DNA of 64,000 nt from Minisyncoccia bacterium (GCA_041737125.1 JBGSSJ010000014.1:68375-132374), one strand, 5' to 3'. Counted from the stretch's first letter, positions 10,664 through 43,654 are shown. Made by a program: numbers and translations. Notes: a model not told the origin generated them from the sequence alone.

Positions 10664-10675
10664 AAGTGATACAAA

Positions 10676-10703: not shown

Positions 10704-10713
10704 AATTTGTATA

Positions 10714-11892: not shown

Positions 11893-11983
11893 TTTTTCCC
11901 TAAACGGGTGTTTTATTTTTTTTCGAAATGTTCTTTGTCGGTTTTATTATAACCGATATGGCTCGCATTGTCAAGCAAAAAAA

Positions 11984-12066
11984 CTACACGTTTTTATGTT
12001 TTTTGTCGGCTTGTTTTTCGAGAATTTCTAGCTTTTTAGAGATTATTATCATTTCTTCTTTTATGT
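11984..12066 (-). pseudogene. ghost 3' gene fragment encoding ...IISKKLEILEKQADKKHKNV*, near-identical to the 3' end of the 15962..16411 gene
   Basis: About 60 bp matches 15986..16044 with roughly 5 mismatches. The minus-strand frame reproduces that gene's C-terminal peptide with its own stop, but there is no upstream coding body. Confidence 0.45.
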
Positions 12067-12117
12067 TTATGGTGGCCTAAAATATAATATTAATTCAAGT
12101 TATGATATAATTTTAAA

Positions 12118-28059: not shown

Positions 28060-28424
28060 ATCACATACGTAACCCGCGTGTGATTTTTTTATTGAATTTA
28101 AAGTTTAGGAAAATCTTCTTCAGGTAAAGGCAAAGAATTATTTATTCTAAATGAAATAAATCTATCAATAATCATCCAGCTTCTTTTAAGTATTCCTCTC
28201 CTCTCTTCGCCACTTAATAGAATACCTATATGTCCATGTCTAATTTTTTTCATTTCGTCTGAATAAATTATTTGAATGAAATCGTCAGTTATCCTTAATG
28301 TTTCTTTAAATTTTATCCACGCTTTTTCTTCTTTTTCATATGGATATAATGAATTTCTTAGCCTTTCAATAGCCCGATGACATCCCGATATATCAGTAGT
28401 GCCGTCTCTTAAATTAGGGACTAT

Positions 28425-28859
28425 TTAAGATATTGATAAAAAAAGCTGAGGTTCTTTCCTTACCAAGTTAAGTGCTAAGTGAAAACCGCTTGTATTTTCA
28501 ATAGAGAAAGATTTACAACTATCTTTTAAATACCCATTTTTTGAAAAATTACATTCTATGTTATTTGGAGTGATTACTCTATTTAAAAAAACATCAAAAT
28601 AAATACCAAGAGAAAAACTATATAGCTGAACAATTGTACGTACAAAATCTGAAGCATAATCCAAATAATAGCCTAAATTTTCTTCTTTATATAGATCGAT
28701 TTCACAGCGAACTGTTACAATAGAATTTTCTATGCTTATCAAATAACTAATTGTTTGATTAATTGGTTGAATTGTATAAATTATTTTTGGTATTTCTTTT
28801 ACAATTAAAATTTTTTCATCATTAGGGAATATTCGTCCTGTAAATTTGAATGTTTGCAT
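28425..28859 (-). CDS. hypothetical protein (last gene of the LexA-headed operon)
   Basis: ORF only; co-directional with the upstream defense-like genes. Confidence 0.3.
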   Translation of the reverse strand: MQTFKFTGRIFPNDEKILIVKEIPKIIYTIQPINQTISYLISIENSIVTVRCEIDLYKEENLGYYLDYASDFVRTIVQLYSFSLGIYFDVFLNRVITPNNIECNFSKNGYLKDSCKSFSIENTSGFHLALNLVRKEPQLFLSIS

Positions 28860-29015
28860 GTTTATTGTGAATTAAGATAACATCCTCCAGATTCCTTTTC
28901 TTATTGCTAATTTTATATACAAAGCTGGCGTCTTTGAGCCAGAACGGTGCTCGGTCAAGCCCTGCAAGGACATTTTCAATACTTTTAGACCATGATTTCG
29001 ACGATCTTTGAGCAC

Positions 29016-29207
29016 CTATAAAGTTACCTCGTTTCCATGTCCGTCTAACACCACTCCTTTTGGAAGCTTATACAGATCAGGGTTCTGCTTCTTATCCATT
29101 TTGATCAGCAGATCAAACAGACCAACGACTCTATCTCGTTCTTCCTCAGTCCAGTTATTAGGATTTTTCTTATCTTCTTGATTCATAAAAAGTGACAAAA
29201 GTGACAC
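29016..29207 (-). CDS. hypothetical small protein
   Basis: ORF only. Confidence 0.2.
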   Translation of the reverse strand: MSLLSLFMNQEDKKNPNNWTEEERDRVVGLFDLLIKMDKKQNPDLYKLPKGVVLDGHGNEVTL

Positions 29208-29243
29208 GGATTAGGCTTATAAAATTACAGTCATGTGTCACTT

Positions 29244-29969
29244 TCAACCTAGTGGATGATTCTTCATATCCTCCTCCGCTTTCTTTGGGTTTGTAGCAAA
29301 AAACACTTGCCCAATATACCCAGGTTCATCAATCAGCATAATGCCACCATCCAGATCGTATTTAGTGCAGACTTCTTTCAAGCTCATTAGTGTAATGACA
29401 CAAGTGTCTGCTCTGACTATTCTCTTCAAGTTCTCAACAAAAGGTCTCTTCTCTTTAAAATCAATCTTTGATGGTCTGTACGTTGGGTGAATAAACTCTG
29501 ACAACCTTTGATATGACGTTAGGTATTGGGACTCAGAATTTACGGCTGTAAACTTCTCACGAATCTTAGTCTCCTTGTAGCCTTTCAGTTGCTCCTTAAA
29601 AAATTCATACATTTCCTTTGCCTCAGGTGTGTATTCATCTAGTGCTTCGAACTTTTTCGCCATGCCTTTGACTTGTGTCAGCTTAAAGTTTGTCGCTCTC
29701 TTTTCAGTGTCCTCCTTGTAGATGTATTGGAGATTGATTGAGTTTTCTAAGATTGATCTAGATAGCTTTATACACCCCTCAAAATCATTTCTCATGATCA
29801 ACGTGTCCATTGATTCAAATATCCCAATGAACTCTTCTATAGAAAATTTGGTCACATCAAAAACGTCCTCGGGTATGGATTTCCGCTTTTCCTGAATCTG
29901 CTCCAGATGATCCTGAAGAATCGACTTCATGGCTCCGAACACTGTCTTTTTCTTGAAGAGGTTAAACAT
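29244..29969 (-). CDS. hypothetical protein (operon member, unknown function)
   Basis: ORF only; tightly packed with neighbours. Confidence 0.4.
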   Translation of the reverse strand: MFNLFKKKTVFGAMKSILQDHLEQIQEKRKSIPEDVFDVTKFSIEEFIGIFESMDTLIMRNDFEGCIKLSRSILENSINLQYIYKEDTEKRATNFKLTQVKGMAKKFEALDEYTPEAKEMYEFFKEQLKGYKETKIREKFTAVNSESQYLTSYQRLSEFIHPTYRPSKIDFKEKRPFVENLKRIVRADTCVITLMSLKEVCTKYDLDGGIMLIDEPGYIGQVFFATNPKKAEEDMKNHPLG

Positions 29970-29983
29970 TGTTTTACTATTAA

Positions 29984-30199
29984 TTACTTTCCGTTAGTCT
30001 TTTCAAATTTCTCTAGCTCCTGTTTGATCACATTCCTACAAAGGACTTCGAGGTAATTCAATCTTTTCAATATCTGTTCTTCGGTACTTGTTTCGTCAGA
30101 CATTATTTTCCTATACTCCTCTATAGAGATCGACATGTTAAATGAGTACGATAAGTTGAAGTATGAATCCACTAAGAAGTAGTACGCCTCCAATAACAC
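29984..30199 (-). CDS. hypothetical small protein (likely start at internal Met near 30136)
   Basis: ORF overlaps the upstream gene unless the internal Met is used. Confidence 0.2.
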   Translation of the reverse strand: MLLEAYYFLVDSYFNLSYSFNMSISIEEYRKIMSDETSTEEQILKRLNYLEVLCRNVIKQELEKFEKTNGK

Positions 30200-30929
30200 C
30201 CCATTTTCTTTGAGTCAGACGATCTTGAACTTGCGGTAGTTTTAGATTCTCTTCATCAGTACCACCCCAACGAGAAACACCCAATCGTAGTGCTTCTTTT
30301 TGAGAAATAAACAAACCTTTTGCAAAAGCGATACTTCCTAGAAAGCTCAATGTGAGTCCAGCGATATTTAAGTACCCATCAATACCAGTCAATTGAACTG
30401 TAGGTATATCAAAGAAACCAGACAAAGCTGACCACGGGATAACCGACAGGATCAATGCGAGATAAATAACGATGAATATTTTTGGAACATATAATTCGAT
30501 GTGACTGAACGGCCAGTAAACTTTCTTATCTTCTCCACGACCCAACATTTCCCATTCCGTATCGTACAGAGCAAGTGGTAGTCGCATTTCAATCGCGTGG
30601 ACTACTTTGAATTTCGCACTGTTCAGCCCCTTGTATGATGCGATGATTCTGTACCACAAGTAACAGATGGTTATACCTGCAATCGAAGATACACCAAGCA
30701 TAAGACTTATTTCGGACTGACTTGTCTTTGTTGCAATAAATCCCAAAAGAGCAACAAGTGCGGTATTCAAACCAAGAAAGAACTCGTTAGTCTTTTGTCT
30801 GCGATCACTTATCTTCTCAGTAGCGTTGATATAAATCTTGTACTGATCCAAAAGGTGCTCAATATACTTATCACCGTATTTTTCCGATGCAGAGATAAAT
30901 AATATTTTTTCAATATCTTCTTTTTGCAT
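30138..30929 (-). CDS. multi-TM membrane protein with short N-terminal cytoplasmic helix; SLATT/DUF4231-like putative pore-forming effector
   Basis: N-terminal KYIEHLLDQYKIYINATEKISDRRQKTNEFFLGLNTAL pattern followed by about 5 TM helices; 4-bp gap to the TIR-like gene. Confidence 0.45.
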   Translation of the reverse strand: MQKEDIEKILFISASEKYGDKYIEHLLDQYKIYINATEKISDRRQKTNEFFLGLNTALVALLGFIATKTSQSEISLMLGVSSIAGITICYLWYRIIASYKGLNSAKFKVVHAIEMRLPLALYDTEWEMLGRGEDKKVYWPFSHIELYVPKIFIVIYLALILSVIPWSALSGFFDIPTVQLTGIDGYLNIAGLTLSFLGSIAFAKGLFISQKEALRLGVSRWGGTDEENLKLPQVQDRLTQRKWGVIGGVLLLSGFILQLIVLI

Positions 30930-30932
30930 AAA

Positions 30933-31340
30933 TTATGACAGCTCACGGATACCAGCCACGATAGAACTTGTGTTCCATTTGACTATTTTGTCCGCATTTT
31001 TCTTTACGACCAATGATGTTTTTTCACTCGCCCAAGGTTCGATAGCAAGAATCGGTTTCGGATTTGTGAACCCTTTTGCAAGTGCAATCTCTTTATTAAT
31101 CCAATCGCTGTAACTTGAGTATACTCCCGCAAGAATTATGATCACATCACAAAAACGCATCTGATCTTGTATAGCTCGTGATAAAGCAATAGAGCTTGGA
31201 GCGTTGTGAATGGGATCATTCTTCGGTACAGAATAGTCCTTAAAATTAAATCGTGGGTCTGCGTTGAGCATTTTAATGAGCTTATCGTATGCATCACCGT
31301 ACGCCCAAGAGTGACTTATGAATATGTTGTAGTGTCTCAT
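30933..31340 (-). CDS. TIR-like domain protein (DUF1863/ThsB-type)
   Basis: N-terminal YNIFISHSWAYGD and conserved W..KEIALAKG glutamate region; 135 aa. Confidence 0.6.
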   Translation of the reverse strand: MRHYNIFISHSWAYGDAYDKLIKMLNADPRFNFKDYSVPKNDPIHNAPSSIALSRAIQDQMRFCDVIIILAGVYSSYSDWINKEIALAKGFTNPKPILAIEPWASEKTSLVVKKNADKIVKWNTSSIVAGIRELS

Positions 31341-31343
31341 ATA

Positions 31344-32285
31344 TTATATCTTTCCCTCCTTAACTAACCTCCAATAATGGTAACCGAGCGCCGTTAACTT
31401 ACATGTCTTTGAATTTTGAGCAACATAATACATATGCTCCTCTCCCACAGGCATCACCAAACCTATGCTCACCAACTTCTGCAGATTTTTTAGTATCGCG
31501 ACTTTTTCAGGAACAGCGATATCCTTATTATCAAATTCATAGGTTGGATCGAGTTGATACTCTTGCTCTGGTACCGAAAAATACTCCGTCATCTTTCTTA
31601 AGACTTCTACTGGTACCTGCGGACTAATGGTTCGCAAAGAAGTGAATCTTGTGACATTTGTTTTAAAAACTGGTCGCTGATCCCATGGACCAAGAGCTTG
31701 ATCAATATAGGCGTAGACACTGCCTGGTGTTATGTGACCACGCAAATCCGCCGCACCCCCTTGTAGTGCGTCAATAAGTAAATTAGTGAAGATGCCATGA
31801 CCATTAACCTCAATAGCACTTTCCGCAGACCTGCTCGCAGTCAGAATTACTACACCTTCGATTATTTGAGCAGAACCATTTCCAATTATCGCAGGAGATC
31901 CAAATGCTCCAGAATGACAACAATCCAAAATTATCACCTTATCTTTCGCTTTGGATTTATTTGCCAAAGTAAGTATTTCGTCCATTGAAACACCCTCATC
32001 ATTCTGCTGGTAATCTGGTGTCACTATATAACCACCAAGATCATTGAAGAATCCGTGACCTGAAAAGTAAAACAAGGCAATGTCACTATCACCCTCAAAC
32101 AATTCTCTGACCATGGTTTTTAGCTGTGACTTTGTTGTAACATCAGTCTCCAATTTCACGGCAAAATTAGGAGCGCCGTCACCATTCTTCTCAATTGTGG
32201 TAGCAAAGGCTGTGGCATCATTAACACACCCCTTAAGAGGTGCTGTTGGATAGTTATTTATACCGATAACAAGTGCCTTTCTCAT
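31344..32285 (-). CDS. caspase-family (peptidase C14, metacaspase-like) cysteine protease
   Basis: ALVIGINNY...GCVNDA, FYFSGHG (His) and ILDCCHSG (Cys) catalytic dyad motifs. Confidence 0.75.
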   Translation of the reverse strand: MRKALVIGINNYPTAPLKGCVNDATAFATTIEKNGDGAPNFAVKLETDVTTKSQLKTMVRELFEGDSDIALFYFSGHGFFNDLGGYIVTPDYQQNDEGVSMDEILTLANKSKAKDKVIILDCCHSGAFGSPAIIGNGSAQIIEGVVILTASRSAESAIEVNGHGIFTNLLIDALQGGAADLRGHITPGSVYAYIDQALGPWDQRPVFKTNVTRFTSLRTISPQVPVEVLRKMTEYFSVPEQEYQLDPTYEFDNKDIAVPEKVAILKNLQKLVSIGLVMPVGEEHMYYVAQNSKTCKLTALGYHYWRLVKEGKI

Positions 32286-32289
32286 GTTG

Positions 32290-32661
32290 TTAAAGTTTGC
32301 TCAAGAATGATTTTATGTTTGTCCAACTCCAAACATTAATAAGTCGTGTGTTCAGAGGATATGAAAGTGTAGGACGATCACTGGTTGAGTACATCAACAT
32401 TGTCGGGATCTTTTCTTCCTCTGCGGTTTTAATTTCAAATAGCTGACCTGTTGCTGATGGCGTATTTTTACTTATGAGTGCAATAACGCCGTCACAGCCT
32501 TTGATTTTTGTTCGACACTTCGATTCCCAGTCTGTCTCCCATGGTGTCTTTACAGACATATCAACAAACTCAAATGGTGAGTTGTCGTTTTTTGCTTGCC
32601 CTACAAGAAAATCTCGAGATGTCTTGTCTTCAATAGCGAATGCGATAAATATTCTTTTCAT
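32290..32661 (-). CDS. TIR-like domain protein (DUF1863/ThsB-type), second copy
   Basis: MKRIFIAFAIEDK N-terminus and GVIALISKNTPSATGQLFEIKTAEEE conserved Glu region. Start moved to the internal Met, which leaves a 4-bp gap to the LexA stop. Confidence 0.6.
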   Translation of the reverse strand: MKRIFIAFAIEDKTSRDFLVGQAKNDNSPFEFVDMSVKTPWETDWESKCRTKIKGCDGVIALISKNTPSATGQLFEIKTAEEEKIPTMLMYSTSDRPTLSYPLNTRLINVWSWTNIKSFLSKL

Positions 32662-32665
32662 AATT

Positions 32666-33283
32666 TTAATAGAGATCTCCGGGAAGTACCGCAACTACTA
32701 CTCCTTGGATCATGCAGTTATCTGTTAATACGATCGGCTTGTAGGTTTTGTTGCTCGACTTTGGTCTGAGAACAACTACGCCGTCTGCCTTTTCAAAAAC
32801 CTTCACAGTAGCCTCGTCATTGATGAGTGCAACTACTTTGTCTCCGTCCTGTGCAGTATCTTGCTGACGAATCAGTAAGAGATCGCCACTGTCGATACCT
32901 GCCTCATTCATTGAGTCGCCAACCGCACGCAGAATAAAATACTTTGAACCTTTCTTTGCCAGACCTGTAGAGACTGGGATATAGGTTTGTATATTCTCTT
33001 CTGCAAGCGCTGGAGTACCGCAGGTAACAGCTCCGATCAGAGGAACATTCACAGTGCTTACTGAAGCTACCGACTGTGTACCAATGATCACGAGCTGTCT
33101 CCCGATCTTCTTTACCAATCCTGCTTCGATCAAACGATCAATCACAAGACTAGCGGAGCGTGGAGATTTTCCTCCCGTTACCTCGTTTATTTCACGAAGC
33201 GATGGGCTTTCACCATAATGGATAATCTTGTTGCGGATAAGGGCAAAAGCTTTTTTGTCTTTGTCACTAAGGTTATTTGTCAT
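32666..33283 (-). CDS. lexA: LexA-like repressor (winged HTH plus S24 peptidase); likely start at Met of MTNNLSDKDKKAFALIRNKI
   Basis: LexA-like N-terminal domain, cleavage-site region VTCGTPALAEEN, Ser motif VGDSMNEAGI and Lys in ATVKVF. Confidence 0.75.
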   Translation of the reverse strand: MTNNLSDKDKKAFALIRNKIIHYGESPSLREINEVTGGKSPRSASLVIDRLIEAGLVKKIGRQLVIIGTQSVASVSTVNVPLIGAVTCGTPALAEENIQTYIPVSTGLAKKGSKYFILRAVGDSMNEAGIDSGDLLLIRQQDTAQDGDKVVALINDEATVKVFEKADGVVVLRPKSSNKTYKPIVLTDNCMIQGVVVAVLPGDLY

Positions 33284-33373
33284 GGTATAAACAGTATAAA
33301 ATATCGTATACAAAAAAGCAAGACTCCCTACTGAGGGGGAGAACACTGTCAAGGATTCTTTTGACTCTTCCAC

Positions 33374-33607
33374 TTTTAAAGCGTCAGAATCTTCACGACT
33401 GCAAATAACTCAAAGAACGTTTATATCCTTTATTACAAGGATATTTTTATGCTGACGCATTCAGCGTGCGTACACGCAGGAGCTTGCACATTACTTTCCC
33501 CAAAAATCCAAACGCACTTTCTTAGTATCGTGACTATGTAACACAGTGCTGTCATTTTCTAGAGATGACACCCCTGATTACATCATTATCACTAATTCAC
33601 ACACATT
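33374..33607. promoter_or_regulatory. divergent control region between the LexA-like gene and the ParB-MTase/terminase genes, with several palindromes (candidate operators)
   Basis: TATCCTT-attac-AAGGATA, ACACAGTGCTGTCA, GCTGACGCATTCAGCGTGCG and GAACGTTT-like elements in a 234-bp non-coding gap between divergent genes. Confidence 0.4.
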
Positions 33608-34888
33608 ATGAAAAAAGAAACATTGGAATGGATTTCAGGAATTGAGGACGTTAAAAAGTTAAAGCCTTGGAAAGACAATCCCAGGGACATAACGAATGCA
33701 GGGTTTGAAAGATTGAAAGACAGAATCAGACTGCGTGGTTTTCACAGTTCGATAGTTGTTGATATTGATAACACCATCCTCTCAGGAAACATGAGATGGC
33801 GGGCACTTAATGCACTCGGTATTAAAAGGGTCAATATTCTCAGACCGAATAGAAAACTAACGAACGAGGAGCGAAAAAAGATTGCACTCGAAAGTAATTT
33901 GAACGACGGCGAGTGGAACATGGAAGCCTTGAAGTCATTTAACTTGGAGCTACTGACTGATGTCGGGTTCGATCAGATGAAGCTCGTGGAGTTCTGGGAC
34001 AAGGATGCGAAGGTTGCGAATGAACCTTTTGATCTTGAGAAAGAAATCAAGATTGCTCAGAAGACTGATATTAAACACGGGAACATGTATCAGCTCGGTC
34101 GCCACAGATTAATTTGCAGTGACGCTACGGATCCAAATACCGTCATCAGGTTGATGAACGGAGCAAAGGTAGACCTCATCAATCAAGATCCACCTTTTAA
34201 TATAGGGCTGTCATACGACAAAGGAGTTGGTGGAAAGAAGAGCAACAAGAACTACGGCGGTGGAACGAACGACAACATGAGCGATGAGGGATACAAGGAC
34301 TTCATCAGGAAGATGATCACGAATGCGTTGTCCGTCAGTAAGAAGGACTGTCATGTTGCCTATTGGGCAGATGAGAGGTTCGTCTGGATTTTTCAAACCT
34401 TATACAAAGAATTGGGTGTCGCTTCCAAGAGACTTCTCATATGGGTTAAGAACAATGCGAGTCCGACACCTAGAACTGCTTTTAACAAAGCAACGGAATA
34501 CATTATCTATGGCACAGTTGGCTCTCCGTACCTTTCTCCAAATGTCCACAATGCCAATGAAATAATAAATCCCGATACGACAACGGGAAATGATCTGCTC
34601 GACGAGTTGAGTAACATCATTCTCCAAAAGAGATTGCCGAGCAACCAATATAATCACCCCACACAAAAGGATCCTCAGGTGCACACCAAGATACTCAAAC
34701 GCTGTACCAAGATCGGTGATGTGGTGCTTGATCTAACCGCTGGTTCTGGAAGTATCATGTCCGCCTGTGAGCAGTTAGGCAGAGTCGCCTACATGTGTGA
34801 CTACGAGCCTATTTTCTGCCAAGTAATCCTGAATAGATACAAGAAGATGACTGGACTTAATCCTGTACAGATATATGAAGAAAAATAA
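33608..34888 (+). CDS. ParB-like nuclease domain fused to a beta-class DNA (N6-adenine or N4-cytosine) methyltransferase
   Basis: N-terminal ParB/Srx-like region; motif IV DPPF (LINQDPPFNIG) precedes motif I VVLDLTAGSGS, the order typical of beta-class amino-MTases. Confidence 0.7.
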   Translation: MKKETLEWISGIEDVKKLKPWKDNPRDITNAGFERLKDRIRLRGFHSSIVVDIDNTILSGNMRWRALNALGIKRVNILRPNRKLTNEERKKIALESNLNDGEWNMEALKSFNLELLTDVGFDQMKLVEFWDKDAKVANEPFDLEKEIKIAQKTDIKHGNMYQLGRHRLICSDATDPNTVIRLMNGAKVDLINQDPPFNIGLSYDKGVGGKKSNKNYGGGTNDNMSDEGYKDFIRKMITNALSVSKKDCHVAYWADERFVWIFQTLYKELGVASKRLLIWVKNNASPTPRTAFNKATEYIIYGTVGSPYLSPNVHNANEIINPDTTTGNDLLDELSNIILQKRLPSNQYNHPTQKDPQVHTKILKRCTKIGDVVLDLTAGSGSIMSACEQLGRVAYMCDYEPIFCQVILNRYKKMTGLNPVQIYEEK

Positions 34889-35264
34889 GATACAGGATAA
34901 ATTTTTTGAAGAACTCAAAACTATCCCGATCGTTCAGGTCGCTTGTGAAAAATCAGGGGTTTCCAGAAACAGCGTGTATCGTTGGAAGAAAGAAGATAAG
35001 TCGTTCTCAAAGAAAATGGATCAGGCGCTTGCTGACGGCGTGGCATTCGTGAGTGATATGAGTGAAAGCCAGCTCCTCACGCTAATCAAAGAAAAGAGTT
35101 TCCCTGCACTTAGCTTTTGGCTACGGCACAGGAATGACAACTACAAAACCAAGGTCGAAGTATCGGGATCAATATCAACAAAAGAAGATCCGCTCACCAA
35201 AGAACAGAAGAATCTCGTACGGCAAGCACTGAAATTATCTTCTCTCAAACACCATGAGAAATGA
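34875..35264 (+). CDS. phage terminase small subunit-like HTH protein
   Basis: HTH CEKSGVSRNSVYRWKKED, and position immediately upstream of the terminase large subunit with an overlapping start. Confidence 0.5.
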   Translation: MKKNKIQDKFFEELKTIPIVQVACEKSGVSRNSVYRWKKEDKSFSKKMDQALADGVAFVSDMSESQLLTLIKEKSFPALSFWLRHRNDNYKTKVEVSGSISTKEDPLTKEQKNLVRQALKLSSLKHHEK

Positions 35265-36696
35265 AAGTAAGCAGATCTTCGAGCGAGTCCTGAAAGATCA
35301 GCGGTTTCGGCAAGAAGTCGTTAGAAAAAGTTTGGAGTTTTTCTTTCCTATATATCTGCACGAATACATCAAGTACGAAACACCACCCTTTCACAATGAG
35401 ATATTTCGTATTCTTCAAAATGAGAAAAACAAGCTTGCTGTCATCGCTGCATTTCGAGGTTCAGCAAAATCAACTATCGTAACAACCGCATATGTTCTGT
35501 GGTCTATCTTAGGAGTACAACAAAAAAAGTTCATCATCGTATGTTCACAGACTGAAGCAAAAGCAAGACAACATCTGAACAATATTAAATATCAACTTCT
35601 CAATAATGAACTCTTAAAGAAAGACCTTGGACCATTCGAAGAAGAGAAGAATAATCTTGGGAATGCCACTGCTCTGATTATTAAACGAATGAATGTGAAG
35701 ATTATGATCTGCTCCATTGAGCAGAGTATTCGTGGTATGCGACATAATGAGCATCGTCCTGATCTTATTATTCTCGATGACATTGAAGATATGAACTCAG
35801 TCAAAACAAAGGAGGGTCGAAACAAAACATTTGACTGGCTCACTGGCGATATTATCCCTGCAGGTACCCGAAAGACTCGGATCATCGCTATCGGCAACCT
35901 GCTCCACGAAGACTGTGTATTGAAACGACTGGAGAAGAAGATTGAAAAAGGTGAAGTGAAATTAATGAATGGTATCTATCGCGAGTATCCAATTATAGAC
36001 AACAAAGGCAACGCACTTTGGGCTGGTAAATACCCAACCACTGAATCTATTGAGGAAGAGCGAGAAAAGGCTCTGAACGATATTGCGTGGCATCGAGAGT
36101 ACCTACTCAAGATCATTTCAAGCGATGAGCAGATCGTAAAACCAGAATGGATAAAGTTGTATGACAAATTTCAAACTGATGGATTCAGGGGTATCTATAT
36201 TGGCGTAGACTTGGCTATCGGCGAGAAAGAAACGAATGATTGCACAGCTATGGTTATCGGGTATGTCTTTGGTATCGGAAAGAAGATGAAAATATACATC
36301 CGTCCAAAACCATTTAATGCCAGAGTTCCATTTCCTGAGCAAGCTGAGTATTTAGCAAATTTGATTGCAAGGGAAAAAATCACACACAATAGAGTCAAAG
36401 TATACGTCGAGGACGTTGGGTATCAGCGAGCACTTGTGCAGTACTTCGATAGCAACAAGTACGATATCGAAGCTGTGCCAGTTGGCAGAATGAGTAAGTC
36501 ATTGCGACTGCAATTGACCACACCACTCCTCAAAGAAAGTAGAGTTCTCTTTCCAGAGGAAGGGTGCGAAGAACTTATTGAGCAGTTACTTGGATTTGGA
36601 AAAGAAAAGCATGACGATCTGGTCGATGCGTTTTCTTTGCTAGTGATGAAAGTGATCGATAATAACCCGAGTAACGCAGGAATAATATTTGGATAG
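35254..36696 (+). CDS. phage terminase large subunit
   Basis: ATPase Walker A-like AFRGSAKST, Walker B-like LIILDDIED, and C-terminal nuclease motif EKHDDLVDAFSLLV. Confidence 0.7.
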   Translation: MRNESKQIFERVLKDQRFRQEVVRKSLEFFFPIYLHEYIKYETPPFHNEIFRILQNEKNKLAVIAAFRGSAKSTIVTTAYVLWSILGVQQKKFIIVCSQTEAKARQHLNNIKYQLLNNELLKKDLGPFEEEKNNLGNATALIIKRMNVKIMICSIEQSIRGMRHNEHRPDLIILDDIEDMNSVKTKEGRNKTFDWLTGDIIPAGTRKTRIIAIGNLLHEDCVLKRLEKKIEKGEVKLMNGIYREYPIIDNKGNALWAGKYPTTESIEEEREKALNDIAWHREYLLKIISSDEQIVKPEWIKLYDKFQTDGFRGIYIGVDLAIGEKETNDCTAMVIGYVFGIGKKMKIYIRPKPFNARVPFPEQAEYLANLIAREKITHNRVKVYVEDVGYQRALVQYFDSNKYDIEAVPVGRMSKSLRLQLTTPLLKESRVLFPEEGCEELIEQLLGFGKEKHDDLVDAFSLLVMKVIDNNPSNAGIIFG

Positions 36697-36700
36697 ATTT

Positions 36701-37618
36701 TTATTCGTTTATCTTAAAAGAGACAATCGCAAGCAGTAGCTCAAAGTCATTCATTGAAATAATAAATGGAGCTTCTTTTCCTTTCTTGAATAGATACAAA
36801 AATCCATCTCTAATATCCAAAGAAGATATTTTATCGTAAGGAATACTAAGATGTTTATTAAGACCAATGTACCCAAGATTATCTGTGGTTAGATATAGAG
36901 TACCTGCATCATCAGTCATCATCACATTCACTTTTTGTGGATTAATTTTGATGTTACCAACTCGATACCTTAATCCCTTGGCGATCTTTATAGATGCAGA
37001 AAAGCCACTATAGTTGTAACTCTTCGTTATTGATTTGTTTTTAACAATAAATGCCTTATTTACACAGTGCAGTTTTTCACCTGCCTTTAAATTGACATTC
37101 AGATTTGGAACATCAATGGTCGGTAGCTTTCCCTCGTCTATTAAATAAAGCGTATGGTATTTATTAAAATCACTTTGATTATACGCAAGATTATCTGTAG
37201 AGAGATTCAGATCAGAATAAATTTTAACAAGCTCTTTTCTCTCGGCTTCTGTAATTCTTGAGTCGTCCGTAATTTTATCAAAGAAAGTTTTGAATCCTAT
37301 GAGATTATATTTTTCGACATCCTTGTCAGACAAATTATGATCTTTTTTAATTCCCTCTAAAACTACCTTGTCGTCTTCTGACAGGTTTCCATCAATCAGT
37401 AATTCTTTGATTTTTTCTGAATATAAACTTAACGCTTTTCTTTTAGGTGATCTAAATACTTTTGTAAATAGAAAATAAACTGCACCTATGGCGATACCTA
37501 TGTAGAGGAGATCTTTAAATAAACTGAAATTGACGATGATTATCGTGAGCACTATAAGAGTAAGTATTATCTGCTTGGCAAGAGATAAATCCTTAAACTT
37601 TTGTAAAAGATTTTTCAT
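36701..37618 (-). CDS. membrane-anchored hypothetical protein
   Basis: Two N-terminal TM helices and an unknown C-terminal domain. Confidence 0.4.
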   Translation of the reverse strand: MKNLLQKFKDLSLAKQIILTLIVLTIIIVNFSLFKDLLYIGIAIGAVYFLFTKVFRSPKRKALSLYSEKIKELLIDGNLSEDDKVVLEGIKKDHNLSDKDVEKYNLIGFKTFFDKITDDSRITEAERKELVKIYSDLNLSTDNLAYNQSDFNKYHTLYLIDEGKLPTIDVPNLNVNLKAGEKLHCVNKAFIVKNKSITKSYNYSGFSASIKIAKGLRYRVGNIKINPQKVNVMMTDDAGTLYLTTDNLGYIGLNKHLSIPYDKISSLDIRDGFLYLFKKGKEAPFIISMNDFELLLAIVSFKINE

Positions 37619-37977
37619 TAACTTTGGACGGTTTTTCTAATAATGAACTGGGCAGGTAGCAAAAAACTCCTAGCCAGATCCGACATACCCCGTGAGGTAT
37701 GCCCACATCAGTTTCCCGATGTGACCGTCCAAAGTAGACCCCTGACTAGGAGATCTTTGCTTTGGACGGATTTGCAACCATATCCTTTGGCGAACCAAAG
37801 GGGTTAGGTCGACTGATATTCAGTTGTAAATGAATAATAACATTTTCAGAGTTATTACTCTAGATTGATTGTATCGCTGATACGTGGTTTTGCTAAGGAT
37901 AGTATCGCGAGTATGCGACGTATTTCTTAGTCTGCATAGTCTTAGCAAAATAGATGATCTGCGTCATTAATTAATAT
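37619..37977. promoter_or_regulatory. palindrome-rich non-coding region upstream of the second serine recombinase (candidate attachment site and promoter)
   Basis: CTTTGGACGG at 37621 and 37758 with its inverse CCGTCCAAAG at 37725; CTCCTAG / CTAGGAG inverted pair; TTGCTAAG..CTTAGCAA inverted pair. Confidence 0.35.
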
Positions 37978-39300
37978 ATGGAAACGCAGTACATAAGTAA
38001 CCTTGGTGTTAAGACGGAGGTAATTCAAGCGAAAGTAAGATATGTCTTATACGCCAGAAAATCAACTGAATCTGATGAGAAGCAAGCCCTTTCGATTGAG
38101 TCTCAAGTAAAGGAGATGTTAACTATCGCAGATCGAGACGGTTTAACAGTCGTCGATATTAGGCGTGAATCTCATTCTGCAAAAGAGTCAGGGCAACGAC
38201 CAGTATTTAAAGAATTACTTGAGGATATTCGGCGAGGTAGATATACAGGAATTCTGACCTGGGCACCTGATCGTCTTTCTCGAAATGCCGGTGATCTTGG
38301 TTCAGTTGTTGACCTTATGGACGAAAACAAGCTTATAGAGATTAGGACATATGGACAACACTTTAAGAATTCACCAAACGAGAAGTTTCTTTTAATGATT
38401 TTATGCTCACAAGCAAAACTCGAGAACGATAATAAAAGTATCAATGTAAAACGAGGATTACGGACAAGATGTGAAATGGGGCTTCGCCCAGGTCCTGCAA
38501 TATTTGGATATTTAAACGAAAAGCATGTAGATAAAAAATGTGAAGTTATTATCGACACAGAGCGAGCACCTGTAGTTAAAAAGATATTTGAAAAAGTAGC
38601 ATATGAAAAATGGAGTGGGAGAAAAATATATCACTGGTTAAAGTTTGAGTTAAATCTAAAAACTCGTAACGGAAACAAAGGACTTACCCTCAGCAACATC
38701 TATATGATTTTAGAAAACCCCTTTTACTACGGGGTTTTTGAATATCCCAAGAAAAGTGGAAATTTTTATAAAGGTAGACACGAACCAATCATCACAAAAG
38801 AACTGTTTGATACTGTGCAAGAACAAGTTAAATCACAAACTCTTCGTACTCAAGAGCCAAAAGAATTCGCTTTTATTAAAATGATGAATTGTGGTCTTTG
38901 TGGATCAGGAATTACCGCAGAAGAAAAATTTAAGAAACTTAAAGACGGCAGCATAAACAGACATGTGTATTATGGCTGTGCCAAATCTAAGGATAGATTT
39001 TGTAAGTGTGGGTATATTAATGAGAATGATTTGATTCAACAATTTGAAAAACTAATTGATCAAATTGATATCAATGAAATTGGAATGAAAGAAAAAATTA
39101 AATACGAAGTTGAGCGAATTAAAAGATTTAACCATTCTGTATTAAATATAAAACAACAAATACAGATAAAAGATGTGGATGTAAGGGACTACGCCAAGTT
39201 TATTTTGAAAGATAGCTCGATTGAAGACAAGCGAGAATTACTCATGTGCTTTAAAAACAACATTTTGTTAGATAATAAAACTATTAGGTTGAGTTATTAA
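37978..39300 (+). CDS. large serine recombinase (paralog of 1948..3591)
   Basis: YVLYARKSTESDEKQALSIESQ...WAPDRLSRN catalytic domain and a Cys cluster CGLCGS...CAKSKDRFCKCG. Confidence 0.85.
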   Translation: METQYISNLGVKTEVIQAKVRYVLYARKSTESDEKQALSIESQVKEMLTIADRDGLTVVDIRRESHSAKESGQRPVFKELLEDIRRGRYTGILTWAPDRLSRNAGDLGSVVDLMDENKLIEIRTYGQHFKNSPNEKFLLMILCSQAKLENDNKSINVKRGLRTRCEMGLRPGPAIFGYLNEKHVDKKCEVIIDTERAPVVKKIFEKVAYEKWSGRKIYHWLKFELNLKTRNGNKGLTLSNIYMILENPFYYGVFEYPKKSGNFYKGRHEPIITKELFDTVQEQVKSQTLRTQEPKEFAFIKMMNCGLCGSGITAEEKFKKLKDGSINRHVYYGCAKSKDRFCKCGYINENDLIQQFEKLIDQIDINEIGMKEKIKYEVERIKRFNHSVLNIKQQIQIKDVDVRDYAKFILKDSSIEDKRELLMCFKNNILLDNKTIRLSY

Positions 39301-39379
39301 CAGTGTATTATCATAAAGCTTAGACTTTCGGTTTTATTTCGGATATAATTGAATTGTAGCAAATTAGATTTCTAAACAA

Positions 39380-40957
39380 ATGACCACACTAACCAAAAAA
39401 CAAAAAGAAGTATTTGATTATATAAGCACATATATCGCTGAAAATGGTATTTCTCCAACCATTGATCAGATTCGTAAAAAATTAAAGCTGAAGGCAGTCT
39501 CTACTGTTCATGAACATATCGCTTCCCTAAGAGAAAAAGGATACCTTTCAAAGTCAGATAGTACAGATCGAGGGATGACACCAAAAAAAGAAATCAAATC
39601 GGTAATTGAGATTCCTATAGTTGGTAAAATTGCTGCTGGTCAACCAATTGAGGCATTAGAAGATCATCAGGCTACTATTTCAATAATAAATCCCTCTATT
39701 AAGAGTGCTAAGGATCATTATGCTTTACGAGTAGTTGGTGACAGTATGATCGATGAAGGTATTTTTAATGGAGATATTGTGGTTATTAAAAAACAATCCG
39801 TAGCAGAGAATGGACAAACTGTTGTCGCGATTATTGACGATAACCAAGCAACCCTCAAAAAATTATATAAGGAGGATAAAAAAATAAGGCTACAGCCTGG
39901 AAATCCTGACATGAAGCCTTTGTTTAGAGTAGATGTTGAGATCAGAGGTGTTGTTGTTCAAGTTATAAGAAATATCGATAATGAAGCAGAAGTGTTACCT
40001 ACAAAGAAACAGAAGCATGGTTTTAGAACAATAGACTTATTTGCTGGAGTAGGAGGCATCCGAAAAGGATTTGAAAATGCAGGTTTTAAAACAGTCTTTG
40101 CAAATGATTTTGATGCCCCTTGTAAGCAGACATATGATTTGAATTTTAAAGATTCTAAATTAATAATTGAAGACATTAGAAAAATTGGTATCAATGATTT
40201 ACCAGAGTTTGACTTTATACTCGGAGGTTTTCCTTGTCAGGCATTTTCTATAGCAGGCTATCGCAAAGGCTTTGATGATCCTAAAAATAGAGGTAACCTG
40301 TTTTTTGATATTGCGAAGATTATTGAAGCAAGAAAACCAGCAGGCTTCATGTTGGAAAATGTTAAAAATCTAAAAAGCCATGATGATGGAAATACTTTTA
40401 GAATTATCGAAGAGACCCTCAGAGATCTTGGTTACCATGTAAAATCCAAAGTACTAAACACTATGGAATATGGAAATGTTCCCCAAAATCGTGAGAGAAT
40501 TTATATTGTAGGATTTAGAAATAAAGATTACTTTGATAGGTTTAACTTTCCAGAACCAGTAAAACTCACAAAAAAAATAACAGATCTCTTAGAGAAAAAT
40601 GTTCCTGAAAAATACTATTACAATGGCAAACCTCTTTTTGATAAATTAAAGAAAGACGTAAAAGAAGAAGGTAAGGTATACCAATGGCGAAGGCAATATG
40701 TTCGCGAAAATAAAAGTGGGGTTTGCCCTACTCTCACAGCAAATATGGGAATGGGTGGACACAATGTACCAATTATCAAAGATAAGAAAGGTATCAGAAA
40801 ACTTACGCCATTAGAGTGCTTTAGAATACAAGGATTTCCTGCAACTTATATTTTACCCAAGATCGCAGACTCTTCTTTGTATAAACAAGCTGGCAATTCA
40901 GTTAGTGTCCCTGTTATTGAAGCCGTTGCTAAAAAAATGATGGAGGCAATGAAGTAG
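39380..40957 (+). CDS. fusion of a full-length LexA repressor (wHTH plus S24 autopeptidase) to a cytosine-5 DNA methyltransferase
   Basis: LexA part: LTKKQKEVFDYI, cleavage site KIAAGQP, VGDSM Ser, TLKKL Lys. MTase part: motif I DLFAGVGG, motif IV GFPCQAFS (PCQ), ENV, C-terminal QAGNSVSVPV. Confidence 0.85.
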   Translation: MTTLTKKQKEVFDYISTYIAENGISPTIDQIRKKLKLKAVSTVHEHIASLREKGYLSKSDSTDRGMTPKKEIKSVIEIPIVGKIAAGQPIEALEDHQATISIINPSIKSAKDHYALRVVGDSMIDEGIFNGDIVVIKKQSVAENGQTVVAIIDDNQATLKKLYKEDKKIRLQPGNPDMKPLFRVDVEIRGVVVQVIRNIDNEAEVLPTKKQKHGFRTIDLFAGVGGIRKGFENAGFKTVFANDFDAPCKQTYDLNFKDSKLIIEDIRKIGINDLPEFDFILGGFPCQAFSIAGYRKGFDDPKNRGNLFFDIAKIIEARKPAGFMLENVKNLKSHDDGNTFRIIEETLRDLGYHVKSKVLNTMEYGNVPQNRERIYIVGFRNKDYFDRFNFPEPVKLTKKITDLLEKNVPEKYYYNGKPLFDKLKKDVKEEGKVYQWRRQYVRENKSGVCPTLTANMGMGGHNVPIIKDKKGIRKLTPLECFRIQGFPATYILPKIADSSLYKQAGNSVSVPVIEAVAKKMMEAMK

Positions 40958-40959
40958 GG

Positions 40960-41523
40960 TTACCAAACCTTTACATCAGTCGCGATTGGCTTAAGGTCAT
41001 ATTTTGCAATCACATCTTTTTTGATACAAAATCTAGGTCGTCTCTTTTCTTCTTGTTGCTGTTTTAGCGTTTGAAGTTTATTGACCGGGTTATCATAGAT
41101 AAAATTATTAGGTATTTTATATACCTTAAAAGTTCCGTCGACTCTGCCGTCAGCATAAAAATCTAAAAAATATAAATCGTCCCACTTAGATTTTGGACCA
41201 AAAGAAGTAAGATCATTTTCTACACTACAAGCTTTGATTTGTTCTGCTCTCTTTGTTTTAGTATTAAACGTATCAAATGATGTATTAGAAAGTTTTTTAG
41301 CACTTATTAATCTTGTGGATCCAGACCATAAACAAAAAGCAACCTCAGATAATCCTTCAGGAAAATTTGGTTCACGCGATTTATAATCACGCATTCCCAT
41401 CTTTAATCCTTTCCATAGATCAAATAGTGTTTTCCATTTTTTTCCATCAGAAGAATCAAACTCCATTAGATCAACGGTGCAGTCTTCATCAAAAATAGTA
41501 GTGTTTACTTTAACTAAGTTCAT
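40960..41523 (-). CDS. putative type II restriction endonuclease partner of the C5-MTase (small, possibly Bsp6I-like)
   Basis: Convergent with only a 3-bp gap to the C5-MTase gene; 187 aa with acidic/Lys clusters compatible with a PD-(D/E)xK enzyme. The call rests on context only. Confidence 0.35.
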   Translation of the reverse strand: MNLVKVNTTIFDEDCTVDLMEFDSSDGKKWKTLFDLWKGLKMGMRDYKSREPNFPEGLSEVAFCLWSGSTRLISAKKLSNTSFDTFNTKTKRAEQIKACSVENDLTSFGPKSKWDDLYFLDFYADGRVDGTFKVYKIPNNFIYDNPVNKLQTLKQQQEEKRRPRFCIKKDVIAKYDLKPIATDVKVW

Positions 41524-41628
41524 GATGTATTTATACTATATTTTTATCAATTTCTCAAACAAAAACACCTTTTTAATTAAAGGTGTTTTTGTTTTAAAAC
41601 TAGCTATCTTTGAGCTAGCTCTTGTTTG

Positions 41629-41728
41629 CTGCCAGACCTGGACTCGAACCAAGGAAGTGTCCTACCCGCCCGCCATTGCAAGCATGAGCTTGCTCAGGCG
41701 TTGCGGGCGGGCCATTAGACGATCACTG
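41629..41728 (-). pseudogene. degenerate tRNA-Gln paralog: T-arm and acceptor 3' strand intact, anticodon arm deleted, 47-nt GC-rich palindrome inserted in the D-loop, 5' acceptor mutated
   Basis: Aligns base-for-base with tRNA-Gln at 41743..41813 except for the missing anticodon arm and the inserted CCCGCCCGCC...GCGGGCGGG hairpin (41665..41711). Confidence 0.45.
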
Positions 41729-41742
41729 ATTTCTGCACAAAG

Positions 41743-41813
41743 CTGCCAGACCTGGACTCGAACCAAGATAACCTCCTCCAGAGGGAGGTGTCCTACCATT
41801 AGACGATCTGGCA
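41743..41813 (-). tRNA. tRNA-Gln (anticodon CTG)
   Basis: Acceptor TGCCAGA/TCTGGCA, D-arm GTCT-AATGGTA-GGAC, anticodon arm CCTCC-CTCTGGA-GGAGG, T-arm CTTGG-TTCGAGT-CCAGG. Confidence 0.8.
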
Positions 41814-41828
41814 GCTTTGTGCATAAAT

Positions 41829-42065
41829 TTATATTCTCTCTTTTAAAAATCTTCTCCCAAAACCTGTTTTAAAATACTTTTCTCTTTTCAATGCTTTTTC
41901 TTTACTATTACAAGCTTCATAATATAAAATTTCTAAAGGTCTTCTATTCTCAGTAGCTGGTACTTTGCCTGCAGAATGAAGATTAAATCTATTCTTCAGG
42001 TCTTCGGTATAACCTACATATAAATCACCATCCTTTAAACTTTTTAATACATATGTGTAATACAT
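41829..42065 (-). CDS. GIY-YIG nuclease superfamily small protein (YhbQ/UPF0213-like)
   Basis: YTYVLKS...GDLYVGYTEDLKNRFNLHSAG GIY-YIG motif and C-terminal REKYFKTGFGRRFL. Confidence 0.75.
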   Translation of the reverse strand: MYYTYVLKSLKDGDLYVGYTEDLKNRFNLHSAGKVPATENRRPLEILYYEACNSKEKALKREKYFKTGFGRRFLKERI

Positions 42066-42073
42066 AAATTAAA

Positions 42074-42136
42074 GTCCTACCCGCCCGCCATCGCAAGTAT
42101 GAGCTTGCTCAGGCGTTGCGGGCGGGCTATTAGACG
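42074..42136. repeat. second copy of the GC-rich ~47-nt palindromic element with tRNA D-arm-like flanks (gtcctac...attagacga)
   Basis: 42079..42125 matches 41665..41711 with 3 substitutions; the flanks gtcctac and c(t/c)attagacga are conserved. Confidence 0.55.
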
Positions 42137-42162
42137 AGCCGGCAATGCGATCGGCAAATACT

Positions 42163-42213
42163 GCTCAATGTCGATATATTACCACAAAAAAGCTAAAAAA
42201 CAATTAAAAATAT
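42163..42213. repeat. ~50-bp direct repeat, copy 1 (CTCAATGTCGATATATTACCACAAAA...TAAAAAACAATTAAAAATA); copy 2 at 43586..43636
   Basis: Two near-identical copies bracket the 42264..43523 gene. Confidence 0.7.
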
Positions 42214-42263
42214 GCTCTTGAATCAATTCCTAGAATAACTATTCATACTAACTTACAGTTAGG

Positions 42264-43523
42264 TTATTCTTGTTTAGGTTCGTAAATTACAGTACCTTTT
42301 GCTATCTTATTATTTTTTTCATCTTCTTCATCTACGGTATTAAATAAAATGTTAAATTCTAAATTATCACCAGTAGAATTTTTTTGAATATCCACAGACT
42401 TTGGCTCTCCCTCTGTTGGCTTATCAGATGCAATCACTTTTACATTATAAACCTTGGACATTTCCTCTGCGAGTCCACCCTCAACACCTGTAAGACAACT
42501 CGATAATACTAGTTCCGCATTATTTTCAAATAATTCTTTGACTCTCTGTATACCTTTACCACTTAAATCTTTTTGCTGGAGCATGCGGTTATCACCCTCT
42601 CTATCGCCAAATCCTACAACATCTGTATTGCCATGAACATGCATATACATGAACTTTATTTTTTGATTATATTTATCTCGAAGATATAGTAGTCGTTTTG
42701 CTAAATCAATTTTTCCATTTGACTCAATAATTCTTATCATAAAGGAATTTTCTTCCACTTTCTCTCTGATACCTTCTGATTGATTCGATTGGGAGAAGGA
42801 ACCATTCCAATCCATAACTGCCTGAAAAAATAAACCATAAGGACCTTTCGCATCTCTCTCCTCATACTGTTTTTTAAGTTCATGTATTGTATATCTCCCA
42901 AAACCACGAATACCAAAATTATCAAATAAATACTTTACAGATCCTTTTTCAAAATTTTGAAGAAATCTTATTTTTCTAAATGTTTCATATATGTACCAGT
43001 CAGCTATTTCGTCATCCTTAACTGTAAGCCAGCTCTGAATAAGATCTTCTGCTTCGTGTTCAGAAAAACCAAACTGTTTTAATATGTAATCAGCCAAATA
43101 CTCTTTATACTCTAAATCTTTTTCTTTTGAAGTATATAATTCTCTCTTTCTTAAAATATCGCGAGCTAGTGTATGATCAATATCATTTGATATCATATAC
43201 AATCTTGCAGTTATTTCTTTATTTGAATCAGTAAGCAAATCAAGTTTATCAATAAGTTCAAAATAAAACTCGTATTCTCGGGATATACTAAAATGTAATT
43301 CTCCTGTTTCTTCTCTTTCTATATATTTTCGAATTTCACTTTCAACTACCGGTTGAATTTTTATAAAATTTTCTTTTATTTCATTAAACTTTCTGGTTCC
43401 AGGTGAAGATTTTAAAATATCTTTTGCTAATACCTCTAGTTTAGACTTTATATCTTCAGGAGTTTTCATCTCTTCAAGATCTATGCTTCCTGTTTTTATT
43501 ATATTAGGGTTAGGTTCTTTCAT
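42264..43523 (-). CDS. hypothetical 419-aa protein bracketed by 50-bp direct repeats; possible His/Cys-dyad hydrolase in its C-terminal half
   Basis: Long ORF; HVHGNTDVVGFGD and LVLSSCLTGVEGG segments about 45 residues apart (weak caspase-like His...Cys spacing); no firm motif. Confidence 0.45.
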   Translation of the reverse strand: MKEPNPNIIKTGSIDLEEMKTPEDIKSKLEVLAKDILKSSPGTRKFNEIKENFIKIQPVVESEIRKYIEREETGELHFSISREYEFYFELIDKLDLLTDSNKEITARLYMISNDIDHTLARDILRKRELYTSKEKDLEYKEYLADYILKQFGFSEHEAEDLIQSWLTVKDDEIADWYIYETFRKIRFLQNFEKGSVKYLFDNFGIRGFGRYTIHELKKQYEERDAKGPYGLFFQAVMDWNGSFSQSNQSEGIREKVEENSFMIRIIESNGKIDLAKRLLYLRDKYNQKIKFMYMHVHGNTDVVGFGDREGDNRMLQQKDLSGKGIQRVKELFENNAELVLSSCLTGVEGGLAEEMSKVYNVKVIASDKPTEGEPKSVDIQKNSTGDNLEFNILFNTVDEEDEKNNKIAKGTVIYEPKQE

Positions 43524-43585
43524 GTCTCTTTACTTATAGATTTATTACTAAAGTTTTAATATGATATATTGTTTCTCACAAGAAT

Positions 43586-43636
43586 CCTCAATGTCGATAT
43601 ATTACCACAAAATTAGTAAAAAACAATTTAAAAATA
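43586..43636. repeat. ~50-bp direct repeat, copy 2; also carries promoter-like elements for the CDF transporter gene
   Basis: Matches 42163..42213; followed by an extended -10 TGCTATAAT at 43641..43649. Confidence 0.7.
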
Positions 43637-43654
43637 AAAGGAAAATTTGCTATA

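Follow-up and report, generated by a model that had tools for sequence, protein, structure and literature searches.

A 15.6-kb accessory region around tRNA-Gln in a Minisyncoccia genome is probably a mosaic that includes a capsid-less integrative element

The genome of a Minisyncoccia bacterium (GCA_041737125.1, JBGSSJ010000014.1:68375-132374) carries about 15.6 kb of DNA between a gtrA gene (27673-28059; PF04138) and the gene of a CDF transporter (43655-44668; PF01545), and the question is whether this DNA came in as one island or was put together from several parts. An initial annotation had placed a single island at 28060-43650, with housekeeping genes on both sides and an integration boundary at a tRNA-Gln gene. 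The window, that is the whole 64-kb stretch from which all positions are counted, was annotated for proteins and RNAs with Pfam, PHROGs, PADLOC, ARAGORN and Rfam. Our reading is that the 15.6 kb are probably a mosaic, consisting of an integrative element of about 12.7 kb, a chromosomal tRNA-Gln gene with scars and a GIY-YIG nuclease gene, and an independent cassette flanked by repeats. Every feature listed in the initial annotation was found at or near its listed position, and the gene content bears out that the region is accessory and derived from mobile elements. This includes the two signals taken as its limits, a terminator-like hairpin behind gtrA (28064-28082, plus strand, with a T-run to 28090) on the left and a promoter-like site of the CDF gene (43627-43656, a TG-extended TATAAT with 10 of 12 matches) on the right. 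Missing from the list were a LOOT RNA, an 8xMP membrane protein, a DUF5677 protein and a broken gene at 28098-28859.

The tRNA-Gln(CUG) gene (41742-41813, minus strand, DNA anticodon CTG) lies inside the supposed island. The host belongs to the Patescibacteria (Paceibacteria-like), and in a scan of genome and metagenome contigs the best relatives of its CDF protein, all from Patescibacteria/Paceibacteria-type metagenome genomes, reached 78% amino-acid identity. About 20 relatives have a tRNA-Gln gene no more than 10 kb from CDF, and in the closest genomes (L004, L014, L001 and L008) the neighbours of CDF are pyrG, LOG and tRNA-Gln. As a conserved neighbour of CDF, the tRNA gene is therefore chromosomal and stands outside the element, as its integration landmark, which puts the element's end at about 41.63-41.73 kb. 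The closest relative of the element itself is a contig from an ENA metagenome, L234, which is 82.7% identical in DNA to 37768-41650 of the window (3.9 kb), while at the protein level the recombinases agree to 92.7%, the methyltransferases to 90% and the endonucleases to 93.6%. The L234 element ends at an intact tRNA-Gln(UUG), and two hairpins that it shares with the window (41545-41621, including CTAGCT-ATCTTTG-AGCTAG at 41600-41618) come directly after this tRNA. Because the shared hairpins adjoin an intact tRNA-Gln in L234, the right end of the element is placed at about 41.62-41.63 kb and not at CDF. The nearest genome-level relatives, L004 and L008, have tRNA-Gln near CDF and no recombinase element there; L008 has an AbiV gene at this place.

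The same geometry returns in the wider family of recombinases. In at least 19 related loci, turned so that the recombinase gene is on the plus strand, this gene is followed, after 120 nt to 5.6 kb, by a tRNA gene on the minus strand, which may be a tRNA-Ser, Gln, Glu, Asp, Arg, Asn or Trp. In the window, tRNA-Gln is 2.4 kb downstream of the recombinase gene and on the opposite strand, and in L167 the order is recombinase, tRNA-Gln(CUG), pyrG. The proposal that tRNA-Gln marks an integration boundary is thus upheld by these loci, by the end of L234 and by the two relatives without the element. The insertion of all 15.6 kb as one unit between gtrA and CDF, on the other hand, is contradicted and has become scarcely credible. 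It is true that all genes in the interval are accessory and that a terminator and a promoter stand at its limits, but the interval contains a conserved chromosomal neighbour of CDF, the homology to L234 stops at the tRNA, and homologs of a gene for a 419-amino-acid protein to the right of it occur in unrelated contexts. Furthermore, the GIY-YIG gene was never found beside tRNA-Gln in the relatives examined, and gtrA has no synteny to the relatives. Neither gtrA nor the Na/H exchanger gene next to it can be counted as conserved backbone; the exchanger has a top non-self match of 63% identity, and CDF adjoins pyrG/LOG in the relatives. The assumption of housekeeping genes on both sides was only partly right, since it fails for the left flank (11.4-28 kb), which consists of ordinary accessory genes that are not syntenic with the relatives.

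The unit that ends at the tRNA is built around a colinear backbone. A LexA/CI-like repressor gene with a winged helix-turn-helix (HTH) and an S24 peptidase domain (32666-33373, minus strand) is divergent from an operon of three plus-strand genes, which encode a ParB_N protein with an N6/N4 DNA methyltransferase domain (33608-34888; phrog_498, 6e-77), the small terminase TerS (34875-35264) and a full-length large terminase TerL (35254-36696; phrog_38, 1.5e-81). Terminases of cultured phages, most of them Mu-like, share only about 26% identity with TerL. Further downstream on the same strand is the integrase gene (37978-39300; phrog_95, 6.8e-62). Large serine recombinases were recognised by a catalytic, a Recombinase and a zinc-ribbon domain in one protein of about 440-550 amino acids, and this protein has all three (Resolvase PF00239, 2.9e-21; Recombinase PF07508, 2.2e-17; Zn_ribbon_recom PF13408, 4.5e-6). 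Its catalytic serine is conserved, R27-K28-S29 being invariant in an alignment of seven recombinase sequences.

IMG/VR was searched with TerL and with the recombinase, which brought up contigs with the entire colinear set; the alignment-based recombinase search gave 69 loci, and 72 loci were obtained in all. A TerS homolog is present in 60 of the 72, the ParB-methyltransferase in 54 and TerL in 52. TerL stands upstream on the strand of the recombinase in 47 loci, 20 of which have less than 330 nt between the two genes; the others have 0.9-9.3 kb of inserted genes there, most of them on the reverse strand, and the 1282-nt gap of the window is typical. In colinear order, the ParB-methyltransferase is followed by TerS and TerL, a LOOT-led cargo slot on the reverse strand, the recombinase, another cargo slot and the opposite-strand tRNA, and the window copy has the one-strand backbone ending with the recombinase that defines the family. 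Many members also carry a second methyltransferase. Variable cargo occurs at three places, to the left of the backbone, in the gap between TerL and recombinase, and from the recombinase to the end. Among the cargo of relatives are type I, IIG and III restriction-modification systems, OLD nuclease, KAP NTPase, reverse transcriptases, nucleases and a PLD-SNF2 helicase, and the inserted and flanking genes are overwhelmingly of defence type.

These loci appear to represent a widespread family of integrative elements of candidate-phyla-radiation (CPR) bacteria, apparently undescribed in the searchable literature. An accessory island as such is ordinary; it is the architecture of the family, the targeting of tRNA genes by a serine integrase and the context of LOOT for which we found no description there. 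CPR bacteria have tiny genomes, and to our knowledge almost none of their mobile elements have been characterised. A recurrent 12-kb unit with Thoeris-like, restriction-modification, retron-like and Abi genes would be a main carrier of their defence genes, and a serine integrase family directed at the 3' side of many different tRNA genes could serve as a source of tools.

A unit with terminases and no capsid could also be what is left of a prophage. A serine-integrase phage beside tRNA-Gln would then have lost its structural genes and become immobile, and the defence genes would have arrived later. We consider this unlikely. Although prophages typically carry genes for terminase, ParB-methyltransferase, repressor and integrase, replication and structural genes are absent, and the pseudogene at 28098-28859 and the tRNA scars show local decay, random decay would not produce the same capsid-less order in dozens of independent contigs with 45-93% protein identity. 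Nor would it be expected to leave TerL directly beside the recombinase in 20 loci and cargo slots at fixed positions, and the backbone open reading frames (ORFs) of the window copy are all of full length. In L173 two elements stand in tandem, the TerS region (1-438 and 11959-12396) being repeated at a distance of 11,958 nt with 93% identity, and six IMG/VR contigs carry two recombinase genes, which suggests ongoing or repeated integration at one site. Since the same capsid-less order and fixed cargo positions recur, the family is better understood as a compact conserved element than as a randomly decayed prophage. L173 was also considered as a circular contig and rejected as such, its repeat being a tandem one of 93% identity; no circular contig was found.

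Another explanation requires no discrete insertion at all. The 3' side of tRNA-Gln could be an old hypervariable defence hotspot, where genes, including those of recombinase and terminase, have been gained and lost piecemeal. The whole stretch of 11.4-41.7 kb does differ from the relatives, the 3' side of tRNA-Gln measures 30 kb in the window against 1.4 kb from tRNA to LOG in L004, L008 has AbiV beside the tRNA, and the composition is uniform. However, the backbone with its order is conserved as a unit beside many different tRNA genes, and 3.9 kb are 82.7% identical to a contig of an unrelated sample, as compared to about 69% DNA identity for CDF between the window and its relatives. We therefore regard a piecemeal origin as very improbable, and retain an integrative element as the largest part of the mosaic.

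The LOOT RNA (RF03000) of the window lies at 37682-37810 on the minus strand and matches model positions 1-121 with 79 bits, as compared to a gathering score of 46.4. It is divergent from the recombinase gene and leads cargo slot 1, where the gene directly downstream of it (36701-37618, minus strand) encodes a membrane-anchored protein of 305 amino acids. A covariance model built from four LOOT copies was used to scan the loci. It found 19 distinct copies in 0.96 Mb of loci selected by recombinase, against one in 1.41 Mb of control loci selected by CDF, and this single control copy is also near a serine recombinase. L234 has a copy as well, and about one in four loci of the family gave a LOOT hit. 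Patterns derived from LOOT matched 13 IMG/VR stretches on 12 contigs, ten of which were already known as carriers of the recombinase. Of the other two contigs, L244 has LOOT divergent from a tyrosine integrase (about 10939-13105), and L246 (LOOT at about 3081-3120) is phage-like, with HNH and glycine-rich genes, and shows no integrase in the part read.

LOOT occupies one of three places. As in the window, it can lie just upstream of the recombinase gene and point away from it; it can precede the backbone operon; or it can come immediately after the recombinase gene. In all 19 loci, a co-oriented ORF follows close behind, at most about 100 nt away or overlapping where the start codon is uncertain. 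These ORFs span unrelated families, among them membrane-anchored proteins, nucleases, a protease and a methyltransferase. The predicted structure is well kept in the new copies: pairing holds in 93% of the cells, compensatory changes are seen in 27 of the 30 pairs, G-U pairs are present, and the covariation score is 0.86 as compared to 0.24 for shuffles and at most 0.14 for slid partners, in an alignment fitted to the model. Paired structure, compensatory changes and G-U pairs together fix the LOOT strand as the one that points into the cargo gene. Our inference is a role in cis, with LOOT as the leader of the cargo slot; the alternative would be a small RNA (sRNA) acting in trans. Rfam lists the motif as a metagenome-derived sRNA (PMC7779021), and it was described by Weinberg et al. 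2017 (PMC5737381). The copies studied here agree with RF03000 in their full-length match well above the gathering score and in their covariation, and differ in having a defined context, that of CPR integrative elements in which LOOT stands beside the integrase and leads a cargo gene. The searchable literature gives LOOT no function and describes no such element. For what was an orphan metagenome motif, this provides a host clade, a strand and a genetic context, as well as hypotheses that can be tested.

The gene order suggests how such an element lives. The recombinase, whose own gene is at the tRNA-proximal end, would insert it on the 3' side of a tRNA, in the window that of tRNA-Gln, and the LexA/CI-like repressor would keep the backbone operon off until DNA damage occurs. 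After excision, the element's own terminase would package its DNA into the capsids of a helper phage, while LOOT would act in cis as a leader for whatever cargo stands behind it. A satellite lifestyle is suggested because neither Pfam nor PHROGs matched a virion structural gene (capsid, portal or tail) in the window copy or in the sampled relatives, and the same two collections gave no hidden virion genes upstream of the backbone. A bolder interpretation, which we put forward tentatively and consider rather doubtful, is that the family is a new class of capsid-less, tRNA-targeting phage satellites of CPR bacteria, which package themselves with a complete terminase of their own and carry defence systems from host to host, and that LOOT is a conserved cis-acting control element that licenses cargo expression, for instance by antitermination or by sensing a signal.

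Among known elements, the satellites of the SaPI/PICI, PICMI and cf-PICI types come closest. They are also about 10-15 kb long, with an integrase at one end, a repressor facing the main operon, a small terminase of their own, no tail genes, accessory or defence cargo and site-specific integration. The window copy has the integrase, the repressor, a gene for redirecting packaging, a size in that range and no full set of virion genes, as PICI-like satellites do, but it lacks the replication module of its own that such satellites have; no primase or replicase domain was found by Pfam or PHROGs in any ORF of 28.1-41.6 kb. It also differs in its large serine recombinase, where the others have a tyrosine integrase, in its large terminase, ParB-methyltransferase, LOOT and CPR host, and in that no gene for capsid remodelling or of AlpA type was recognised, the element being known from its genes. 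With P4-like islands and tycheposons it shares the position on the 3' side of a tRNA, an integrase gene beside the tRNA, defence cargo and tandem accretion, whereas theirs are tyrosine integrases and the element here, with its serine recombinase, is not bracketed by direct repeats of a tRNA 3' end as a classical tRNA island is. The phages phiC31, Bxb1, A118 and SPbeta have the same three-domain recombinase (Resolvase, Recombinase, Zn_ribbon_recom) at the end of an integrated element. They are, however, complete phages with mostly protein-coding targets, whereas no virion genes were detected here and the family targets tRNA genes of at least seven specificities.

Several observations weigh against an integrative element with a satellite lifestyle. 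The satellite mechanism is read solely from the genes that are present, and virion genes may have diverged beyond what Pfam and PHROGs recognise; many cargo ORFs have no match. No gene for replication or for the directionality of excision was recognised in the window copy, and the second methyltransferase that is usual in the family is missing from it. No attachment (att) sites could be defined, and the left end may lie at 28060, at about 28870 or further left. The IMG/VR contigs are short and may be trimmed, and with CDF relatives of at most 78% amino-acid identity the collections searched offer no empty site at the species level. The presence of LOOT in L244 and L246 means that this RNA is not exclusive to the serine-recombinase backbone. 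Composition gives no help either. The initial annotation had named k-mer composition as a check on the island, and within the 64 kb the tetranucleotide profile does not mark the region; its distance to the rest of the window is not above that of the pyrG or ABC-F blocks, so that housekeeping DNA deviates equally.

How far the element reaches to the left can be judged from its relatives. The closest one on this side is L178, whose recombinase is 81% identical. A non-coding block of the window (28921-29017) has colinear short matches to the first 155 nt or so of L178 and contains the hairpin CTGGC-TCAAAGAC-GCCAG (28925-28942), which makes it the left-most sequence with support from the family. 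An operator/promoter-like motif at 29187-29242, TGACAAAAGTGACAC ... TATAAAATTACA ... GTGTCAC, consists of two GTGACA direct repeats, a TATAAA box (TATAAA.TTACA) and an inverted GTCAC, and is also present in L178 (156-213) and L172 (183-240), 160-190 nt from the starts of these contigs. This conserved motif may mark the left end of the element or a regulatory site. Between the block and the motif is a small minus-strand ORF (29016-29207) of 63 amino acids, or 57 from its ATG, which matches no known family and has no counterpart at this position in L178. To the left of the block, an ORF of 144 amino acids (28425-28859, minus strand), also without a family match, stays open in the same frame beyond one TAA, for another 105 codons or so, to 28098, and is probably a pseudogene because the two parts share one frame broken by one stop. 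This gene, which has the lowest GC content in the window (0.295), may or may not belong to the element. With the support from the family ending at about 28.87-28.92 kb, the element would measure about 12.7 kb (about 28.87-41.63 kb), which fits the 11,958-nt period of the tandem elements in L173.

At the right end, the position that the intact tRNA has in L234 is occupied in the window by a pseudo-tRNA derived from tRNA-Gln (41628-41730, minus strand), a junction scar. The 26 nt of its 3' end (41628-41653) are identical to those of the real tRNA, it lacks the anticodon arm, and its D-loop holds a GC-rich hairpin of 51 nt, of which no further copy by itself was found in the window or in any fetched locus. 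A piece of 64 nt with D-arm and hairpin is present twice (41659-41722 and, on the minus strand and 95% identical, 42074-42137), and the two copies bracket tRNA-Gln and the GIY-YIG gene. We read these pieces as probable scars of repeated recombination at tRNA-Gln. Direct repeats of a tRNA 3' end were not found as element ends in the window or in 18 relatives, the only such repeat in the window lying 114 nt away, and as the integrase is a serine recombinase their absence is expected. In most members of the family a palindrome, frequently lacking a T-run, stands 5-15 nt beyond the 3' end of the tRNA; CTAGCT-CAAAGAT-AGCTAG is common to the window and L234, and its loop recurs in a hairpin at the left end of the element. 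Inverted repeats between the two ends did not exceed chance level. The motif TCTTTGAGC has four copies in the window as compared to 0.8 expected, three of them at the element ends (28931, 29005 and 41607). As a candidate att core, TCTTTGAGC was set aside, because each copy is inside its own self-complementary hairpin, unlike hybrid att sites.

The cargo of this copy is in part recognisable as defence genes. To the left of the backbone, all on the minus strand, are genes for a DUF5677 protein (29244-29969; 7e-14), an 8xMP membrane protein (30138-30929; 4e-42), a short ThsB-like TIR protein (30933-31340; ThsB_TIR, 1e-15), a caspase-like protease (31344-32285) with C14 at residues 1-180 and a C-terminal domain of about 130 amino acids, and a second short TIR-like protein with a weak match (32290-32694; 0.006). 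In type IV Thoeris, N7-cADPR from the TIR protein activates the protease, and the system defends against phages. The cluster has the architecture published for it (10.1101/2024.10.24.620036), a short TIR gene adjacent to that of a caspase-like protease with an extra C-terminal domain, on a mobile element. It differs in that two TIR genes, the upstream one with a weak match, and 8xMP share one cluster, which is known from its genes. The 8xMP protein could be the membrane effector of a pair with the TIR protein next to it, and the two resemble the systems of TIR plus membrane effector in 10.64898/2025.12.03.692087.

Cargo slot 2 contains a type II restriction-modification pair, with methyltransferase and endonuclease genes of matching families side by side. 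Its first gene (39380-40957, plus strand; PF00145, 2e-92) encodes a fusion of a LexA-like module (HTH and S24) with a C5 cytosine methyltransferase, and the partner of this methyltransferase is a Bsp6I-family restriction endonuclease (40960-41523, minus strand; PF09504, 1.4e-11). The fusion, about 525 amino acids long, is known in at least 120 clusters with the same three domains and is 77-90% identical across Parcubacteria, which makes it more conserved there than the housekeeping CDF. It is paired with a Bsp6I-like endonuclease in all four other contexts read. Because L234-L236 have the pair together with the recombinase and L237 has it without one, the pair is a mobile module in its own right. 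In NCBI the fusion goes under the name 'transcriptional repressor LexA'. Its LexA cleavage site and Ser/Lys dyad are intact, as judged by eye, and restriction-modification by this pair may be under the control of DNA damage. Type II systems with a regulatory domain or a C protein are similar in having a C5 methyltransferase convergent with a Bsp6I-family endonuclease, and the fusion likewise has an N-terminal DNA-binding domain available for autoregulation; the difference is that its regulatory part is a complete LexA-like module, with winged HTH and S24 autopeptidase. This raises the question of how DNA-damage signalling and the control of restriction-modification are connected in Parcubacteria.

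Two further insertions are found between tRNA-Gln and CDF. One is the GIY-YIG gene (41829-42065, minus strand; 78 amino acids), a separate small insertion. The other is the gene of the 419-amino-acid protein (42264-43523, minus strand), which fills most of a segment (42157-43633) bounded by 54-nt direct repeats (42157-42210 and 43580-43633) with 85% identity. About 45 homologs with 52-76% identity were found, adjoining a different serine recombinase in L239 or UmuD/DinB/GIY-YIG genes in L241, and the L239 copy is also bracketed by a repeat of about 50 nt. These unrelated contexts imply an independent accessory cassette, separate from the element. A model of the protein (pLDDT 71.6) gave no significant match in PDB and weak hints of a caspase/CHAT fold only; His-Gly and Cys residues are invariant in its family, which hints at a possible clan-CD protease.

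The rest of the window shows more rearrangement. The counterpart of pyrG/LOG lies at 8981-11442, and relative to L004 the segment from tRNA to LOG looks inverted. Likewise, the pyrG-CDF segment (8981-11442 and 41742-44668 in the window) appears inverted and has grown from about 4.5 kb in L004 to about 33 kb. The accessory genes of 11.4-28 kb include MsrAB-DsbD, thioredoxin, TauE, DedA, a kinase, the Na/H exchanger and GtrA, and a plus-strand gene at 12118-15864 encodes a predicted surface protein of 1248 amino acids with LamG, FN3, SASA-type sialate O-acetylesterase and peptidoglycan-binding domains. Look-ups of the exact proteins gave no match for CDF, DHODH, the methyltransferase fusion and the Na/H exchanger; ABC-F alone was matched, by a Logan contig of 4.7 kb whose sequence is that of the window and which is the sole trace of the window's own strain in these collections. 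Another large serine recombinase, of 547 amino acids and about 33-36% identical to the first, is encoded at 1948-3591 on the plus strand and abuts a tRNA-Asp gene on the opposite strand and two tRNA-Met genes (tRNAs at 3552-3919); L188 has neighbours homologous to those of this recombinase. Since the geometry of recombinase and tRNA is the same as in the element at tRNA-Gln, the window probably starts inside another such element.

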